Below, one piece after another: positions 27,389 through 47,698 of a stretch of 64,000 nt of DNA. The DNA lies in NCBI GenBank assembly GCA_963702845.1, contig OY969763.1, positions 352,001-416,000 on the forward strand. Direction: 5' to 3'. A program made the translations under genes and the position numbers. A model generated the notes under the pieces. It worked only from the letters and a program-made list of their open reading frames with translations, was not told the DNA's origin and made no database searches. This stretch comes from an uncultured Verrucomicrobiae bacterium. Lineage in GTDB: Bacteria; Verrucomicrobiota; Verrucomicrobiia; Limisphaerales; Palsa-1400. Numbering within the stretch: position 1 is the first letter of the stretch; each line of letters starts with the position of its first letter.

Positions 27389-29913
27389 TGAATCGGCTGA
27401 CTCGATGTTTGATCGCGGCGCTTGCTTGCGTTTGCATTTCTACATTCGGAACACAACTGCCCGGCCCTCTGCCTGACGGCGGTGTTCAATTGCCCAACCA
27501 ATGGCAATTGCGTCCAGCGGGAAAACAAATTCCTCTCGACAACTACCCGGTCAACATTGCGATGCATCCGAGCGGCAAGCAGGCCATCGTTTTGCATTCC
27601 GGTTATGGTCCACACGAGTTGGTGGTCGTTGATCTTCAGTCGGAAACAGTCACGCAACACGTTGCGCTAAGCGAAGCGTTTTATGGCGTTGTCGTTTCGG
27701 CCGATGGTAAACAGGCTTATTGCAGTGGTGCGGGAGATGAAGTCGTGCACCGATACGATTTCGTGCGCGGACAGTTGACCAATGGCACTTCGATCAAAAT
27801 TCACGACAAAGTTCTTCGGGGAGTGCCGAGCGGGCTCGCCTTGAATAAGGCGCAAAATCATTTGTTCGTCGCAAATGTTTGGGGCGATTGCATCAGTGCC
27901 GTTGACCTTCCGTCGGAGAAGGTGATCGATATTCTTTTAGGCACGCGGCCGTTATCGAAGACGCTCAATCCCGTTATCCCGTCTGAGAAATTCGACACTG
28001 CCGAAGGCGCGGAGCGGCGCTTTGAAATCGGTTTTTACGAAACGTCACCAGACGATTCTTGCCCATATACGTGCCTCTTGGATGAAAAAACGCATCGCCT
28101 GTATGTCAGCCAATGGGCACAGGCGTCGGTGCGAGTGATTGATTCTAACTCTCTCAAGCCAATCGCCGCATGGCGTTGCGAAGAGCATCCATGCGAAATG
28201 GCGCTGACGCGCAATGGCAGTTTGCTCTATGTGGCTAACGCAAATCTGAACACGGTGACTGTGTTCGACACAAAGTTTGGCCGCGCAATCGAAACGTTGT
28301 CGGCGAGCCTGTATGCCAGTTCACCTCCCGGGTCCACACCGAACAGCCTCGCCCTTTCGCCCGATGAAAAAACTCTCTACGTCGCCAACGCAACGCTCAA
28401 TGCGATTGCTGTTTTTGATGTCAGCACTAAAGGCAAAGGCCGTTCACTGGGTTTTATTCCTGTCGGGTGGTATCCGACGTCTGTTCGAGTGACGCCCGAT
28501 GGCAAACGTCTGATCGTCGCGAACGCGTGCGGCGTGACGGCTAAACCGAACTACGTTCACGGCGAAAGACTCAAAATCCAAACCTTGTTCCCAGGCACCT
28601 TGGACATCATCGATCTTCCGCATGGGAAAGATGCTGAAGGGCAATTTTCCAAATGGACCGCTGAGGTTTATCAGTGCTCGCCGTTGAAAGATAAAGCTGC
28701 GGCACCTCCGCCGTCGTCCCCCGACAATCCGGTTCCCGCTCGAGTTGGCGATGCCAGCCCGATTAAATTCGTTCTCTACATCGTCAAAGAGAATCGCACT
28801 TACGATCAAGTGCTAGGCGACATGAAGGAAGGAAATGGCGAGCCGAAGATTTGCATTTTCGGCGAGCAGGTCACCCCGAACCAACACAAGATTTCGCGTG
28901 AATTCGTTCTGCTCGATAATTTTTACGCGGACGCGGAAGTCAGTGCCGACGGTCACGAATGGAGCATGGGCGCGTATTGCACTGATTTCGTCGAGAAGAT
29001 GTGGCGTATGAATTATGGCCACAACCGAAACGGCAAGTTCCCTTACGCAGCGGAAGGCTATTTTGAAATCGCCACGCCAGCGGGAGGTTATTTGTGGGAT
29101 ACGGCCAAACGCGCTGGCGTGAGCTATCGCAGTTACGGTGAGTTCGTCAGCTACGATCAACCGGCTGATAAACCCGCCCGCCCGCGTGTGAAATCGTTGG
29201 ACGGTCACATCGATCCAATGTACCGCGCGTTCGACATGAGCTATCGCGACGTCGATCGCACCAAGCGTTGGATCTCGGAATTTAATCGGCTGGAAAAAGC
29301 CGGTGAAATGCCGCGCCTGCAGATCATTCGTTTACCGGGAGATCACACGCATGGAACCAGCCCGAGATTCCAGTCCCCGGCCGCGTTCGTCGCCGAAAAT
29401 GATTATTGCGTGGGACAAATTTGTGAAACGGTAAGCAAGTCGTCGCTTTGGCCGCAAACGGCTATTTTCATTATTGAAGATGACGCTCAAAGCGGCTCCG
29501 ATCACGTCGATGCTCATCGAACTACGGCTTATGTCGTGAGTCCGTATACGCGTTTGGGGAAGACGGATTCGACGATGTATTCGACCAGTAGCATGTTGCG
29601 CACAATGGAACTCATTCTCGGCATGCAACCGATGAGCCAATTCGATGCAGCGGCGCGTCCGATGTATAATTCGTTCCAGGCAAAAGCAGACGTGCGTCCA
29701 TACGAGATCGTTCAACCGCAAATGGACATTAACCAAAAAAATGTCGCGGGCGCTTACGGTTCTGATTTCAAATTCAACTTCGCCAAAGAAGACGCGTGCG
29801 ATGACATTCTGCTGAACGATGTTATTTGGAAATCGGTGCGAGGTCGCGATTCAGTAATGCCCGCGCCGGTTCACGCTGCGTTTGTCTACAGTCATGTCGC
29901 TGACAACGACTAG
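27388..29913 (+). CDS. YVTN/YncE beta-propeller plus alkaline-phosphatase-like phosphoesterase, copy 1
   Basis: GFIPVGWYP, YIVKENRTYDQV, SADGH, EDDAQSGSDHVDAHR. Confidence 0.88.
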   Translation: MNRLTRCLIAALACVCISTFGTQLPGPLPDGGVQLPNQWQLRPAGKQIPLDNYPVNIAMHPSGKQAIVLHSGYGPHELVVVDLQSETVTQHVALSEAFYGVVVSADGKQAYCSGAGDEVVHRYDFVRGQLTNGTSIKIHDKVLRGVPSGLALNKAQNHLFVANVWGDCISAVDLPSEKVIDILLGTRPLSKTLNPVIPSEKFDTAEGAERRFEIGFYETSPDDSCPYTCLLDEKTHRLYVSQWAQASVRVIDSNSLKPIAAWRCEEHPCEMALTRNGSLLYVANANLNTVTVFDTKFGRAIETLSASLYASSPPGSTPNSLALSPDEKTLYVANATLNAIAVFDVSTKGKGRSLGFIPVGWYPTSVRVTPDGKRLIVANACGVTAKPNYVHGERLKIQTLFPGTLDIIDLPHGKDAEGQFSKWTAEVYQCSPLKDKAAAPPPSSPDNPVPARVGDASPIKFVLYIVKENRTYDQVLGDMKEGNGEPKICIFGEQVTPNQHKISREFVLLDNFYADAEVSADGHEWSMGAYCTDFVEKMWRMNYGHNRNGKFPYAAEGYFEIATPAGGYLWDTAKRAGVSYRSYGEFVSYDQPADKPARPRVKSLDGHIDPMYRAFDMSYRDVDRTKRWISEFNRLEKAGEMPRLQIIRLPGDHTHGTSPRFQSPAAFVAENDYCVGQICETVSKSSLWPQTAIFIIEDDAQSGSDHVDAHRTTAYVVSPYTRLGKTDSTMYSTSSMLRTMELILGMQPMSQFDAAARPMYNSFQAKADVRPYEIVQPQMDINQKNVAGAYGSDFKFNFAKEDACDDILLNDVIWKSVRGRDSVMPAPVHAAFVYSHVADND

Positions 29914-42958: not shown

Positions 42959-43446
42959 TAGGGCGCGTCGCTCCACGCCGTCCTCTCTTTCTCCCTCTGA
43001 CCACTGACTACGGCATAGCGGCCTCATCGAATGGCGTAGCCATGAAGCGAAGGTAGACGTGGGATTCATCCCACGAACCAAAAGCGCCGCAACGATTCGT
43101 GTCGCGTCGCGACACCTGAACCCGCAAACCCGGTGGCAACCCCGCCACGGTTTGAAGCGAACGATCTGCGCGCCCTAGAGGGGCAGAATGAAAATAGCCC
43201 AGCGCTTTCCGGCCTGTTGCCCAAATCAACGCTCTTCGTCTTCAATCCCAAAGGGATTGCGTCACTCGGCCCAGCACCACGCGAAGCGTCCTCCGTAGCT
43301 TCAGCGAAGGTGGATTGCGTAGCGGCGACGAAGGAGTTAATTGGGTTTGGATCGGTGTAAAATTTTATTGACGGTGTTTGAACCGCGAAGCCACTCCGAA
43401 ATCCCGTAGGGATGACATGATTGTAGCCCGGCGTTTCAACGCCGGG
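42959..43446. repeat. Cluster of REP/MITE-like palindromes
   Basis: GTAG-a-cgtggga-ttca-tcccacg (43053-43075), gtgtcgc-gtc-gcgacac, aatccc-aaa-gggatt, GTAG-cccggcgtt-tc-aacgccggg (43423-43446). Confidence 0.75.
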
Positions 43447-43495
43447 ACAAAAGACTCAAACGAAGTTTCACTTTGCCACAGGCGCGACGAAGGAG

Positions 43496-44389
43496 TTATA
43501 TGCAGGTTGAGACGAGCCTCGAAAGTGAGGGCCAATTCGCTGTCGCGAGCTGTTCGTTTTGAAAAAACTTCTTACAAATACAGTTCCAATCTGGCTTAAG
43601 GATGCCCTTGTGACTACCTCGGACAGCAAGCGTCTCGCCGTCAGAGCAAAGTTCAGGAAACCCCAAGCGACGCATGTTCTGCTCATGATAACCGAAACCG
43701 AAAAACGCGGCTGAGTCGGCTTCTCTAAGAACCCAGCGAGCAAGTTTAAATGCTTTGGTAGAGAGCTTAGCTTCGGAAATAACAACGATTGATTCCAAAG
43801 CCTGCTTCATTCGCTCGTAGGCTGTTAGTCGATTTGTAATCCAATGAAGCCTCTCCCCCTCATAGTCTCGAAGCGTGCCGTGGGGACGAATTACGAACTC
43901 TTCGTTCAACCACCCGGCGGCAGTTTCCCTGGACACGCGTAGATTGTTCGAAATCACGCCGCACAAGTAACACTCAAGCGTTCGATCATAGTTAAAGGTA
44001 ATGACATGAACGCGTCGTTTCTTCAAAGCCGACCACGAGCTACATCGGAGCGCTTGCCAGAATGCTTCGTACCAGTGATCTCGCGGCTGGCACGGCGGAA
44101 ACAGCTTGTCTTCGTTTTCCCTTCCATCGAGGGCGAGCGCCGTGGCGAGCTTTCCTATCTTCATCCAGTTAGGTCGCTTCTCTAGAAAAGAATCCACAGT
44201 TCCTGCCGCAGACATCCGCAAGTCGTTCTGGAATGCGTGAAGTTCATCCCTTGAGACCCGAAATGGGCTCAGTAATTTAATCGTTGAGTCCGTGTGCCGT
44301 ATGCTTAAAACGAGGTCCCGAAGCTCTCGCCCAAGAGGTAAGCCATACGGTTTGCTTGCACCAGCACCGAGGATGAGGACGACGTTCAT
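43496..44389 (-). CDS. SIR2-like domain protein (candidate NADase or defence effector)
   Basis: LILGAGAS, ITFNYD, PHG, FFGFGY. Confidence 0.8.
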   Translation of the reverse strand: MNVVLILGAGASKPYGLPLGRELRDLVLSIRHTDSTIKLLSPFRVSRDELHAFQNDLRMSAAGTVDSFLEKRPNWMKIGKLATALALDGRENEDKLFPPCQPRDHWYEAFWQALRCSSWSALKKRRVHVITFNYDRTLECYLCGVISNNLRVSRETAAGWLNEEFVIRPHGTLRDYEGERLHWITNRLTAYERMKQALESIVVISEAKLSTKAFKLARWVLREADSAAFFGFGYHEQNMRRLGFPELCSDGETLAVRGSHKGILKPDWNCICKKFFQNEQLATANWPSLSRLVSTCI

Positions 44390-44771
44390 ATCTTCGCTAT
44401 CGAAACAGAATCATCCCCGCCATCGAAAAGCACTCTCACATTGCTGACGTAATCCTGCGGAGAGGTAACTTGGTTGGGAGGATGGTAACGCATTTGTTGA
44501 TTCTTCTCATTGTGCAGGACACCGCAAGTTTTTTTGCCGCCATGCCCGCCTTGCCCGTCCGGCTCGGACCCTATCTCGGATGAAGGGCGACAGTCGGAGA
44601 GCACGACCACGATTCGCGACAGCAAACAACTCATTTTGGGCACCTGACTAGTGGCGGGCTTGGGAAGCCAACCTGAGCAGTCAAAAAAAAGAACATGAAA
44701 ACAAATACACAAAATACAAACACAGGTCACTGCAGCTTGAACTCTTCATCTCTTCTGCCAATCATCAACTG

Positions 44772-45332
44772 ATGCGGCGAAAATGGAAGGTCGCGGTTCT
44801 GCTTGGGTGCATCGTCGCCATCGCGATTGGTGTCGCGCTGTTGTGGTCAACTCAACTTAACCAGGTAACGATCACGATCCCTAACGGACCGACGCTCAAA
44901 CTAATAGAGGCGAATTACGATGTCCGCAGTCAAATGTTGCTGAACCAAAACCCAGCAAAGCGCGCCTTGCAGAAGCTGAGCCTCTTGAGCGCGAAAGTTT
45001 TCCCACGACTCTTCATGCAAACGAAGACGATTACATTCTATTCGGACCCGGGTGAGGCAGTGTTTTGGTTCAGCGAAACTCCATACGAGCCCGATCGCGC
45101 TCGCCGGACATGGTGTGCCGTCCAGGACCCCGGAAAGCCCTACACAATAATGGCGGCTTGGAAATTGAAGGCTTGGCGATATCCGAAAACTCCGGGCATC
45201 GTTGCCATCACCTGGCCAGAATGCCCTACGAACGAAGAGACATTGGAACTGTCATTTTACAATGAGAACAATATGGCCCGGTCCAATGTTCTCGGACGAA
45301 TCACATTGAAGAATCCAGCGTATCGGCAGTAA
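44772..45332 (+). CDS. Hypothetical membrane-anchored protein
   Basis: 186 aa ORF with an N-terminal TM helix. Confidence 0.6.
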   Translation: MRRKWKVAVLLGCIVAIAIGVALLWSTQLNQVTITIPNGPTLKLIEANYDVRSQMLLNQNPAKRALQKLSLLSAKVFPRLFMQTKTITFYSDPGEAVFWFSETPYEPDRARRTWCAVQDPGKPYTIMAAWKLKAWRYPKTPGIVAITWPECPTNEETLELSFYNENNMARSNVLGRITLKNPAYRQ

Positions 45333-45445
45333 CCCCGCGCCGTGCATCAGTGGCCGTGCGCGAGCCATTCCTTTTAGAGACTCGCGTCGCCTCCAAACCT
45401 CCACGCCAGAGATTTGCAACCTCTGGATTCCGCGCGCAGAACACC

Positions 45446-45496
45446 CTTGTTCGCGCTGCGGAAATATGCGAACACATGTCGGTATAAGTGTTGGAC
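45446..45496 (+). promoter_or_regulatory. attI-like/operator motif, copy A
   Basis: cttgttcgc-N10-tatgcgaacacatgtcg...GTTGGAC (GTTRRRY core). Confidence 0.5.
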
Positions 45497-45778
45497 AGGA
45501 CGGAAATAAAGAGACTATCTATCTGCATAGCGGCGGCAATTCTCTCTTTTGTTACCTGCCATTTCGAGCCACTGCCTCACGGCGATGCATTGCTCCACTT
45601 GAGGTCCCTTGAAGCGCTCTGGAATATCCTGATCATTGCCGTGTCCGTAACGGCCGTTGCCGTTGGCATCGGCGTTCTGGTTCGCGGCTCTACTCCAGCC
45701 CGCGTCGTAGCAGTCGTCGCCTGTCTGTGGCCGCTTGCAGTCCTTTTGCAACTCGCGGCATTCCTGCTCGTTGAGTGA
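45488..45778 (+). CDS. Small hypothetical membrane protein (about 3 TM)
   Basis: 96 aa hydrophobic ORF starting at the GTT core. Confidence 0.55.
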   Translation: MLDRTEIKRLSICIAAAILSFVTCHFEPLPHGDALLHLRSLEALWNILIIAVSVTAVAVGIGVLVRGSTPARVVAVVACLWPLAVLLQLAAFLLVE

Positions 45779-45785
45779 GGAAGGC

Positions 45786-45917
45786 TCACAACCCCCTCAA
45801 CCTCCCCTGAATAATCACGCGCGGCTTCGTTGCGACCATAGACCGCAACGCATCCGCCGCATCATCGCCGCCGATTCCATCCTCGGCATCAACTTTGTCC
45901 ACGTCCTCAGGCCGATC
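45786..45917 (-). pseudogene. 3' fragment of a phage terminase large subunit-like gene, copy 1
   Basis: RPEDVDKVDAEDGIGGDDAADALRS...GRLRGL*; direct repeat of 46731-46855. Confidence 0.6.
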
Positions 45918-46041
45918 TTCCCCACCATCAGCGTTGCAGTGCGCGCGCCAATCGAGCCTCGCATCCTTCACGCCACGCCCTCACTCCGCAGCTGACGCAG
46001 TTAGGCGGGGTTGCAGAGACGCGCTTCAAGCTTATAAAGCG

Positions 46042-46094
46042 CTTGTTCACCTATCAAAGCTATGTGAACACTTGTCGCATATTAATTGTTAGCC
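46042..46094 (+). promoter_or_regulatory. attI-like/operator motif, copy B
   Basis: cttgttcac-N10-tatgtgaacacttgtcg-catattaatt-GTTAGCC. Confidence 0.55.
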
Positions 46095-46724
46095 ATGAAA
46101 CAACTCGCCGCAGTATTGTTGTCTTTGGTCATCGGGGGCGTTGGTGCCTCCGTTTTCGCGGGCGATGCCAGGACAAACCAGGCGCCACAGCGTGCTGTAA
46201 GCTCAGACGGTGATGTTGGATTGATCATCAAGGAGCTTTCCCCTGGTCATCCTATTGTAATTGCCATCGAGCGTTACAAAGATCATTCGAATCCCTCGCG
46301 GAGGGATGTGGAGATTCCCGAATCTCTGGCTCGTCAGTCGCAGACCAATTACGCGGAATTCAGCAGCGCCTTGGTCGCAGCCGCAGAGCATGCGAAGCTT
46401 GATAGCGCGTCGCTAGCCAAGATATTGGAGCTGGTGCGCGGCGCCAAAGAAAACAAAGGCTTGGCCGTAGTTCCGGTCGCTGCACACGCAACTCGGAGGG
46501 ACGGTGAGCTGGTTTGGGTTGTTTCGCTCAGATGGGAGGGAGAAAAATGGGTTTCAAGCGATGGAGATATGAGTCATTTCAGTAGTTTTACGTTTACGCA
46601 GAAGACATTGAGGAAGGTTGCTTTCGACTCGTGCGACTGATGGCTACAACTGCGTGCAGGCGACGCCGGGTTGCGCGCTGCTGTTTCCTGTAGCTGAGGT
46701 GCCCGGCGCGCCTGACGCATAGCG
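46089..46724 (+). mobile_element. Integron-type gene cassette
   Basis: Begins G|TTAGCC just before the ATG; ends in an attC whose R'' (TGGCTA-C) complements GTTAGCCA. Confidence 0.65.
46095..46640 (+). CDS. Secreted hypothetical protein (cassette cargo)
   Basis: ATG 46095, signal peptide MKQLAAVLLSLVIGGVGASVFA. Confidence 0.7.
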   Translation: MKQLAAVLLSLVIGGVGASVFAGDARTNQAPQRAVSSDGDVGLIIKELSPGHPIVIAIERYKDHSNPSRRDVEIPESLARQSQTNYAEFSSALVAAAEHAKLDSASLAKILELVRGAKENKGLAVVPVAAHATRRDGELVWVVSLRWEGEKWVSSDGDMSHFSSFTFTQKTLRKVAFDSCD

Positions 46725-46730
46725 TTAAAG
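46642..46730 (+). other. attC-like recombination site
   Basis: ggctacaac-tgcgtgcaggcgacgccggg...cccggcgcgcctgacgca-tagc-GTTAAAG; imperfect hairpin with bulged bases. Confidence 0.7.
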
Positions 46731-46925
46731 CCCCCTCAACCTCCCCTGAATAATCACGCGCGGCTTCATCGCCACCATATACCGCAACGCATCCGCCGCG
46801 TCGTCGCCGCCGATTCCATCTTCGGCGTCAACTTTGTCCACATCCTCAGGCCGATTCGGATCGTGCTGCAATGCCGGCAAACACTCAATCAACCGCTGAC
46901 AACGTTTGTGTATGAACAGCCTTGG
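46725..46925 (-). pseudogene. 3' fragment of a phage terminase large subunit-like gene, copy 2
   Basis: PRLFIHKRCQRLIECLPALQHDPNRPEDVDK...DDAADALRY, resembling a terminase nuclease C-terminus. Confidence 0.65.
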
Positions 46926-47353
46926 TGCAGTTGTCAGTCCCAACTATTGACAAAAGCCTCTTTCGTGAAGGGTAGACACTGCATTGAAACAAATGCCGAC
47001 ATTGATTGCGGAGGCAAATCTTCTTCCGCGTATTCAGCGCATTCCGCGGTTCCACTCCGTTCCCTTCGTGCCTCCTGTTCAATCGCTCCCGAACTTTGAT
47101 CCCCTAACTTCCAGCTTCGCTATCCTACACGCTTGACACAGCAGCTACTTAACTATAGGCTAAAGCCGCTGCTTAAAATGCAGTAGCAGGGTTTGCGTTC
47201 AACTTTGGATGCAATTCTCGCCGACAGTCGCGCCATAGCTTTATGCGAAGGCGGATTGGTCTTTGACATATAATGTAGCCGCCGAGGGTGCTTGTGGCAG
47301 TGTGTATCAAAACAATTTGTTCCGTAGTGCGAGGCGGAGGTTTGGCGGTTAAC

Positions 47354-47577
47354 ACTCAACTATCAACCCTCAACTTCCCGATCACCTCCCGACACTTCCG
47401 GACACCCTCCGGACACCCTCCGGACACTGAAAAAGGATTGTTTTATTTTCGTCCTGCGAAGGCGGGCCGTTTAGGAGAAACAAATGTTTCTCCAAAGTTT
47501 CTCCAACCCTTCTCCGAAGTTTCTCCATGTTTCTCCAAAGAGAAGGAATGGGAAGGAATGAGCAACAATGAGCAACA
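47354..47577. repeat. Array of short tandem repeats with 7 bp and 10-11 bp periods
   Basis: ctcaact x3; ccggacaccct x~4; tttctccaaag x5; gaaggaatg x2; atgagcaaca x2. Confidence 0.8.
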
Positions 47578-47698
47578 TTTTTGAATTTTTCTCCGGTTTC
47601 CGAATTTCGACCCATTGACTCCCAAAAAGGCGGAGGTAGTGAAAGATAATGTTGTTAATTGCGTGCTATCCGCTCTAGGGATGTCATGATTGACCCTT

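Follow-up and report, generated by a model that had tools for sequence, protein, structure and literature searches.

Several described systems join integron sites, or phage core genes, to variable cargo, and the locus analysed here resembles each of them in some respect. Delta-attI-type cassettes from integrons of classes 1 and 2 are ORFs bounded by attI rather than by attC and, as the available text of that report describes them, can have an attC trimmed to its R'' (Gonzales Machuca et al. 2026, PMC12901181). In the work on attG sites, the attC of a cassette crosses over at a GWT site outside the integron, and the available text proposes loss of attC as domestication and describes excision that reaches past the point of insertion (Loot et al., bioRxiv 10.1101/2022.09.11.507474). 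A CALIN is a set of two or more attC sites without intI (PMC4889954, in its available part), and cassettes are found in prophages: in Shewanella M16-3 a CALIN with its own attI is reported to have terminase and scaffold genes flanking it (Qi et al. 2023, PMC9892861, likewise). The PeSL of T4-type phages is a short repeat, placed ahead of accessory genes in a hypervariable region, that supplies homology for recombination (Arbiol et al. 2010, PMC2839356, from the text available). The cf-PICIs carry an integrase, primase, terS, terL, portal, capsid and head-tail adaptor (de Sousa et al. 2023, PMC10085698, from the text available), and phage accessory hotspots hold variable cargo between core genes (PMC9122126, as there described). 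The reading that we favour, and hold to be moderately probable, is that pieces consisting of attI plus a cassette and made by IntI were captured at a phage hotspot, were then stacked and shuffled by short-homology recombination, and are now frozen.

The window, by which we mean the whole 64,000-nucleotide stretch that was analysed, carries the locus as an island whose order on the + strand is as follows: 186-aa gene, 'pre', motif 1, 96-aa ORF, T1, 'mid', motif 2, 181-aa ORF, attC-like site and T2 (Table 1). On direct reading, motif, ORF and convergent terL end are present twice in tandem (45439-46926). An earlier interpretation made from the letters alone (the sequence-only reading) had pointed out this tandem repeat, and both units were located where it had placed them; its description was incomplete, in that the attC-like site, the pieces 'pre' and 'mid', and the 186-aa cargo gene had been overlooked. 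The core of motif 1 reads GTTGGAC (45490-45496) and that of motif 2 GTTAGCC (46088-46094; GTTRRYY), which has one mismatch to the G/TTRRRY consensus (the slash marks the crossover).

Table 1. Features of the island and its edge, in window positions
Feature	Position	Strand	Remarks
SIR2-like gene, island edge	43496-44389	-	Pfam SIR2_2 E=0.023; PADLOC SIR2 E=1.5e-5 over 28 aa
Another conserved non-coding stretch in the element interval	44570-44725	not assigned	
186-aa cargo gene	44772-45332	+	Two intact elements have paralogues (81% identical) in their terL-portal gap
Conserved non-coding piece 'pre'	45353-45435	-	Directly after the terL stop in the empty element
attI homologue 1, degenerate (2-nt deletion before core)	45439-45496	+	Crossover 45490/45491
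Cargo gene 1, 96 aa, hydrophobic	45488-45778	+	GTG start spanning the core
terL 3' stub T1	45786-45916	-	43 codons plus TGA
'mid', a conserved non-coding stretch from the terL-portal interval	45917-46014	-	Joined to T1 at ATCGGCC
attI homologue 2	46035-46094	+	Crossover G/TT at 46088/46089
Cassette gene 2, 181 aa	46095-46640	+	Signal-peptide-like N-terminus (by eye)
attC-like site of cassette 2	46642-46730	+	Crossover 46724/46725
terL 3' stub T2	46725-46926	-	About 66 codons plus TAA

The surroundings of the island have some features of their own. The SIR2-like gene is present as a single copy in the genome and, from its weak matches, is a possible defence gene. An Acido-Lenti-1 Rfam match (43400-43446) falls within 43325-43498, between 15-nt direct repeats, and this 15-nt repeat family also occurs upstream of three other motif copies. 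A non-coding repeat with phased TTTCTCC units (47466-47643) lies upstream of a DEAD-box helicase and has about 10 further copies in the genome. A tRNA search of the window found none. An empty chromosomal island site was not found; the helicase orthologue in the same-genus genome G015, on a short contig, has different DNA upstream.

The gene fragments are the terL 3' ends of a family of phage-like elements. T1 and T2 are 93% identical over 125 nt, the longer stub has a weak PHROG terL match (E=4e-4), and the stubs are 64-79% identical to the C-termini of seven full-length ORFs in the source genome, all five of those scanned giving a terminase large subunit match; the terL identity proposed earlier is confirmed by the PHROG match together with this identity. 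With 13 stubs beside the seven full-length homologues, the source genome has 20 terL ends, and a motif lies within 1.5 kb downstream of seven of them as against 1% of random places. Across their final 57 nt T1 and T2 are 82-93% identical to each other and to other stubs, and at most 79% identical to any intact terL. Close terL relatives are mostly labelled Verrucomicrobiota. PHROG scans of the intact elements gave integrase, primase, terS and terL and, beyond a cargo gap, portal, scaffold, capsid and adaptor (the capsid and adaptor were shown by three elements); integrase spacing suggests an element size of roughly 25-50 kb, and the terL-portal gap is 3-6 kb. No tail module was found by PHROG among the 211 ORFs scanned (134 + 77). 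Tail-category matches consisted of one tail-spike-like and one fibre-like ORF, both outside the head modules, and one cargo gene has a weak spanin match.

By sequence comparison the motif is an attI homologue: over its 3' half it agrees with the attI that adjoins intI in the bacterial family's complete integrons. In four of the five family intI loci this half lies 41 nt from the intI start, a spacing that was read directly in three genomes; the attI-like character claimed for the motif therefore held up, and the adjacency to intI that had been suggested as a check was found for the 3' half. Thirty more distant intI loci (two without flank) gave no comparable motif score, the best being 10 bits, and the 5' half was beside none of the intI loci compared. 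A second suggested check, the count of copies, gave 44 in all in the source genome (nhmmer, E<=1e-3, with none in the reversed genome), and 41 PWM matches exceeded 22 bits compared with none on the shuffled strand. Motif copy 2 was part of the training set of the model; copy 1 scores 24 bits (E=1.4e-4) though it was outside that set. An ORF of at least 60 aa begins within 60 nt of 40 of the 44 motifs (control 38%), the GTT core is kept in 27 copies and mutated in the other 17, and a full attC is present within 1.2 kb of only 11 of 50 motif matches. Beyond the source genome the exact 32-nt pattern was found in none of 30 family relatives, not in IMG/VR, and not in GTDB contigs (from which the genome itself is possibly excluded); a 26-nt pattern matched one metagenome locus, and a relaxed pattern matched four copies in the same-genus genomes G014 and G015, none of them adjoining intI. 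An Rfam search gave no match on the motif.

The best conserved part of the motif is a palindrome in its 5' half, TGTTCGC-N13-GCGAACA, which is not present in the intI-adjacent attIs of the family. This is what would be expected if the motif were now only a regulatory or Xer-like binding site, its integron likeness being ancestral and without any role in cargo movement, but we regard that idea as highly improbable: conservation extends to the G/TT core and no further, beyond it come cassette genes and attC sites, and the motif is missing from the empty element (below). A remnant of the intI 5' end was rejected for the 5' half (its translation is unlike family IntI), and a dif/Xer site or LexA box seems not to fit the motif by its spacing. 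A promoter role would explain the retention of attI, and consensus tests gave it no support: consensus scans found no sigma70 site in either motif, and the best promoter register across the motif columns was not above permutation (62/200 permuted columns). At one locus (L279, G000:C1:1826858-1826927, where G000 is the source genome) two attI variants are joined in a back-to-back fusion, and an inverted fusion of this sort may be the origin of the motif's palindromic 5' half.

Where might the integrase have been? The source genome (89.8% complete) has no intI over the TIGR02249 cut-off and no intI stub, and tblastn with IntI found only two XerC/D-like genes (28-29%), so there is no complete integron, with intI in cis or in the genome. 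None was found in the 67-73% complete genomes G014 and G015. TIGR02249 matches at E<=1e-40 occur in five of the 31 family genomes, and complete family integrons with attI are present in G005, G012, G018 and G025 (loci L021-L023 and L025), with canonical cassette arrays following attI in L021 and L023; the attC family of these integrons also occurs in the source genome (92%). The family attI type is multi-copy as well, with 64 matches spread over 23 of the 31 genomes (4 control matches), and among 35 family attI loci (L245-L279, e.g. in genomes G016, G017 and G021) 19 keep only the first 45-117 intI codons and four carry full intI. The truncation point recurs across these loci, often at about codon 76. 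Small ORFs that follow intI in L021 (396-1403), L022 and L023 are common to several genomes and by eye resemble replication genes. A small mobile element with intI in L021-L023 is a possible source of IntI in trans. No IntI relatives were found in viral contigs.

Unit 2 looks like a cassette with a damaged attC that crosses over exactly at the terL stop. It has a single ORF that runs from G/TT to an attC-like site that folds with extrahelical bases, and in this respect the cassette-like cargo of the sequence-only reading was well founded. The bottom-strand hairpin of the site has two single-base bulges (z=-2.74; 2 of 200 shuffles), its HMM score is weak (5.4 bits), and it was missed by the strict scan. 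Its R'' reads GGCTAC for GGCTAAC, apparently minus one A, and R' is unpaired in the fold, so that there is no intact R'' (RYYYAAC) pairing with R'; because R'' appears to be short of this A, the site is probably inactive. The TTA of its R' box, G/TTAAAG, is supplied by the terL stop codon, and an unrelated attC ends at the same G/TTAAAG crossover at G000:3667421. Gene 2 has three homologues (46-89%), no Pfam, PHROG or PADLOC family, and atlas matches under 0.8. No homologues of gene 1 were found. Two attI sites flank it, attI 2 being separated from its stop by 250 nt of element DNA, and no attC follows it: T1 begins 8 nt past the stop, and GGCTCACAAC, which comes after this stop, may be a hybrid of R'' and terL. 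With one attC-like site the island falls short of the two that a CALIN has, and real attC clusters occur elsewhere in the source genome. A second, weak attC-like match is present in the window at 27552-27639 (11.3 bits). Both units look frozen, unit 1 having no attC and a decayed attI, and unit 2 a damaged R''.

The sequence-only reading had ascribed the repeat to remnants of successive elements that stacked here. This fits less well than short-homology recombination among alleles of a single hotspot, since the stubs belong to one terL lineage and T1 and 'mid' are joined at a 7-nt microhomology, ATCGGCC, that is found in both parents. Joins of 'pre' to stubs are present at five other loci, and a join of 'mid' to terL with another breakpoint occurs on contigs of one other metagenome sample (a weak case with short sides). 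The terL end is not special, because host gene ends recur beside the motif in the same way: the end of an 808-aa host ORF, which we take to be a phosphoketolase, recurs 23 times beside motifs (G000:C1:2198669), and the end of a 731-aa host gene does so 8 times (G000:C1:2346104). Host gene ends being duplicated alike, the stub is best seen as flank caught by unequal recombination and not as a recombination site. In metagenome locus L202 (3893-4653) an attI left part, a cassette and an attC stand in front of a gltX-like gene, and a 100-nt diverged duplication starts at the attC crossover, which is the same stacking before a host gene. Direct repeats lie around 14 of the 46 motifs and around 8 of 200 places taken at random; a clean target-site duplication was rejected, as several of these repeats are motif-motif pairs and the copies are 78-94% alike. 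The pile-up appears to have arisen by sloppy recombination rather than through a dedicated loading machine.

The arrangement of unit 1 raises a further possibility, namely that the core-to-core unit (gene 1, stub, 'mid' and the attI left arm) moves by IntI-mediated attI x attI recombination. Such movement would spread both attI and the gene-end scars, and it agrees with the position of gene 1 between two attIs without attC, with the several attI-gene-attI tandems that are present in the source genome, and with the excision by IntI1 of attI1-aadB-attI1 and delta-attI cassettes in the available text of PMC12901181. We nevertheless think it quite improbable, given that the genome has no second copy of gene 1 or of its core-to-core unit, that stub lengths and joins vary, and that no intI is present.

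Is the position after terL a resident slot for cargo, as had also been proposed? The variability stood, and the resident attI did not. A convergent ORF ends within 150 nt of the terL stop in 30 of 67 relatives, and among these ORFs, some of which are probably shadow ORFs, only two pairs are homologous; of the 31 loci in which the portal is reached, 29 have its start 2.8-5.7 kb beyond terL. In an intact element of same-genus G015, 'pre' begins 5 nt past the stop of terL and neither attI nor cargo is present there, and its 20-kb contig has no motif match and only one attC fragment (E=0.99). It follows from this empty, attI-free site that attI arrives with the cargo, and a resident slot loaded in trans is contradicted by it. 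The motif is at none of 98 related terL loci, an attC was found in one of 63 terL-side gaps of relatives, and the terL stop forms GWT on the other strand in only 5 of 81 related terLs. Stubs of terL lie beside motif variants and cargo in both G014 and G015 (L283, 13.7 bits; L287, by eye only), which makes the architecture genus-wide. Cassette-like starts with other attI-like cores are present behind terL in L140 and L072 (15-16-nt matches) and, by eye, with different attI-like cores in L086, L074 and L112; these few Verrucomicrobiota relatives suggest, if weakly, that capture behind terL may recur.

A distributed integron, which amounts to the model of the sequence-only reading confined to one genus and in which the attI copies in elements of the genus stayed live docks and were loaded in trans by the IntI of visiting integrons, agrees with several of these results. 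Six groups of loci (22 loci) share flank and attI and have cassettes that differ from the core onwards, the 'pre'+attI flank is common to eight loci, and core spacing is intact in attI 2; the high proportion of motifs that head an ORF, the intI matches in family genomes and the stubs beside motif variants in G014 and G015 point the same way. We consider it rather unlikely: intI and its stubs are absent from the source genome and no intI was found in the two incomplete same-genus genomes, no empty attI was seen at a terL stop, many cores are mutated and most attCs are lost, and one exchange maps upstream of the core. In 26 pairs of loci that share flank and attI, the sequences diverge at the core (identity 0.72 before it and 0.25 from +7), a pattern to be expected from IntI loading as much as from homology exchange inside the 55 nt that they share, so this test does not separate the two. 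One pair of loci shares cargo (98%), private 3' attI variants and a mutated core, and does not share the flank. Since the private variants travel with the cargo, this exchange fell inside attI upstream of the core, and the pair, a single case, favours homology shuffling for at least some events. A bolder version, an integrase-free distributed integron on head-only, phage-like satellites whose dozens of attI docks are packaged and then reloaded by IntI in trans, seems to us distinctly unlikely; the same degree of doubt attaches to its corollary that attI is a portable, multiplying docking-and-expression module of the genus, placed at hotspots that include the terL stop.

Capture of IntI-made pieces followed by short-homology recombination, the reading that we favour, could have proceeded as follows. 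The locus would be a relic of the terL-portal accessory-gene hotspot of a Verrucomicrobiota phage-like element, and its cargo, as sequence homology shows, comes from integrons as attI plus the first cassette. To judge by the junction, IntI would once have recombined attC with the terL stop on the other strand; G/TTAAAG would have acted as a secondary, attG-type site, and the cassette would have been placed convergent to terL with terL left unbroken. An attI would have come along with each cargo and perhaps been retained as a transcription leader; these 55 nt of attI, common to the copies, would together with the conserved flanks have provided homology for cargo swaps. Two terL-to-'mid' alleles would then have been joined head to tail at the 7-nt microhomology, duplicating the terL end, and attC loss, the R'' lesion, decay of attI 1 and the absence of intI would have frozen the array. 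The left junction of the attI pieces has no IntI signature, which leaves the travel of attI outside this explanation.

The locus shows cassette genes that have left integrons with attI attached and have become fixed in the cargo hotspot of a phage-like element, which traces a concrete path along which genes of integron pools become phage accessory genes and reach chromosomes. Because integron tools rely on intI and attC, solo attI sites are invisible to them. With a defined attI, an IntI of the cognate family, and empty and filled sites, loading in trans is open to a direct test; should the sites be no more than fossil homology, the locus would illustrate cassette domestication well and involve no new machine.

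How does the locus compare with the systems named at the outset? The motif and the family integron attI are alike over the 3' ~30 nt (CGAAC..TG.TG.TATATTAATTG/TTAGG) and both stand before a cassette, but the motif has a one-base indel, a different 5' half with the palindrome, no intI or stub beside it, and 44 copies in one genome. Delta-attI cassettes have, in the available text on them, a partial attI directly after the stop and belong to an intI-bearing array (PMC12901181), whereas here stop and attI are separated by about 250 nt of phage DNA and there is no intI. An attG insertion as described in the available text moves the cassette alone (bioRxiv 10.1101/2022.09.11.507474); here attI accompanies it and gene 3' ends are duplicated. 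Unlike the phage integrons and CALINs in the part of PMC9892861 available, the island has one attC-like site, one attI per gene and repeated terL stubs, in an intI-less genome. The PeSL, in the available part of its description, is a promoter plus a terminator (PMC2839356), whereas the repeat here is an integron attI in which consensus scans find no sigma70 promoter. By PHROG the parent elements have the cf-PICI core from integrase to adaptor, with no tail or holin; protease, HNH, head-tail connector and alpA, which are among the 11 cf-PICI core components, gave no PHROG matches in the scanned ORFs. Compared with the cf-PICIs of the available text (PMC10085698), these elements have a scaffold protein, are larger, have the 3-6 kb terL-portal gap, and reside in a Verrucomicrobiota host. 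In the literature covered, mainly open-access main texts, we came across neither multi-copy solo attI sites located at terL ends nor the combination of dozens of solo attI leaders, a phage hotspot and an intI-less genome; each part of this combination has precedent. The locus is an unusual variant of the known phage cargo hotspots.
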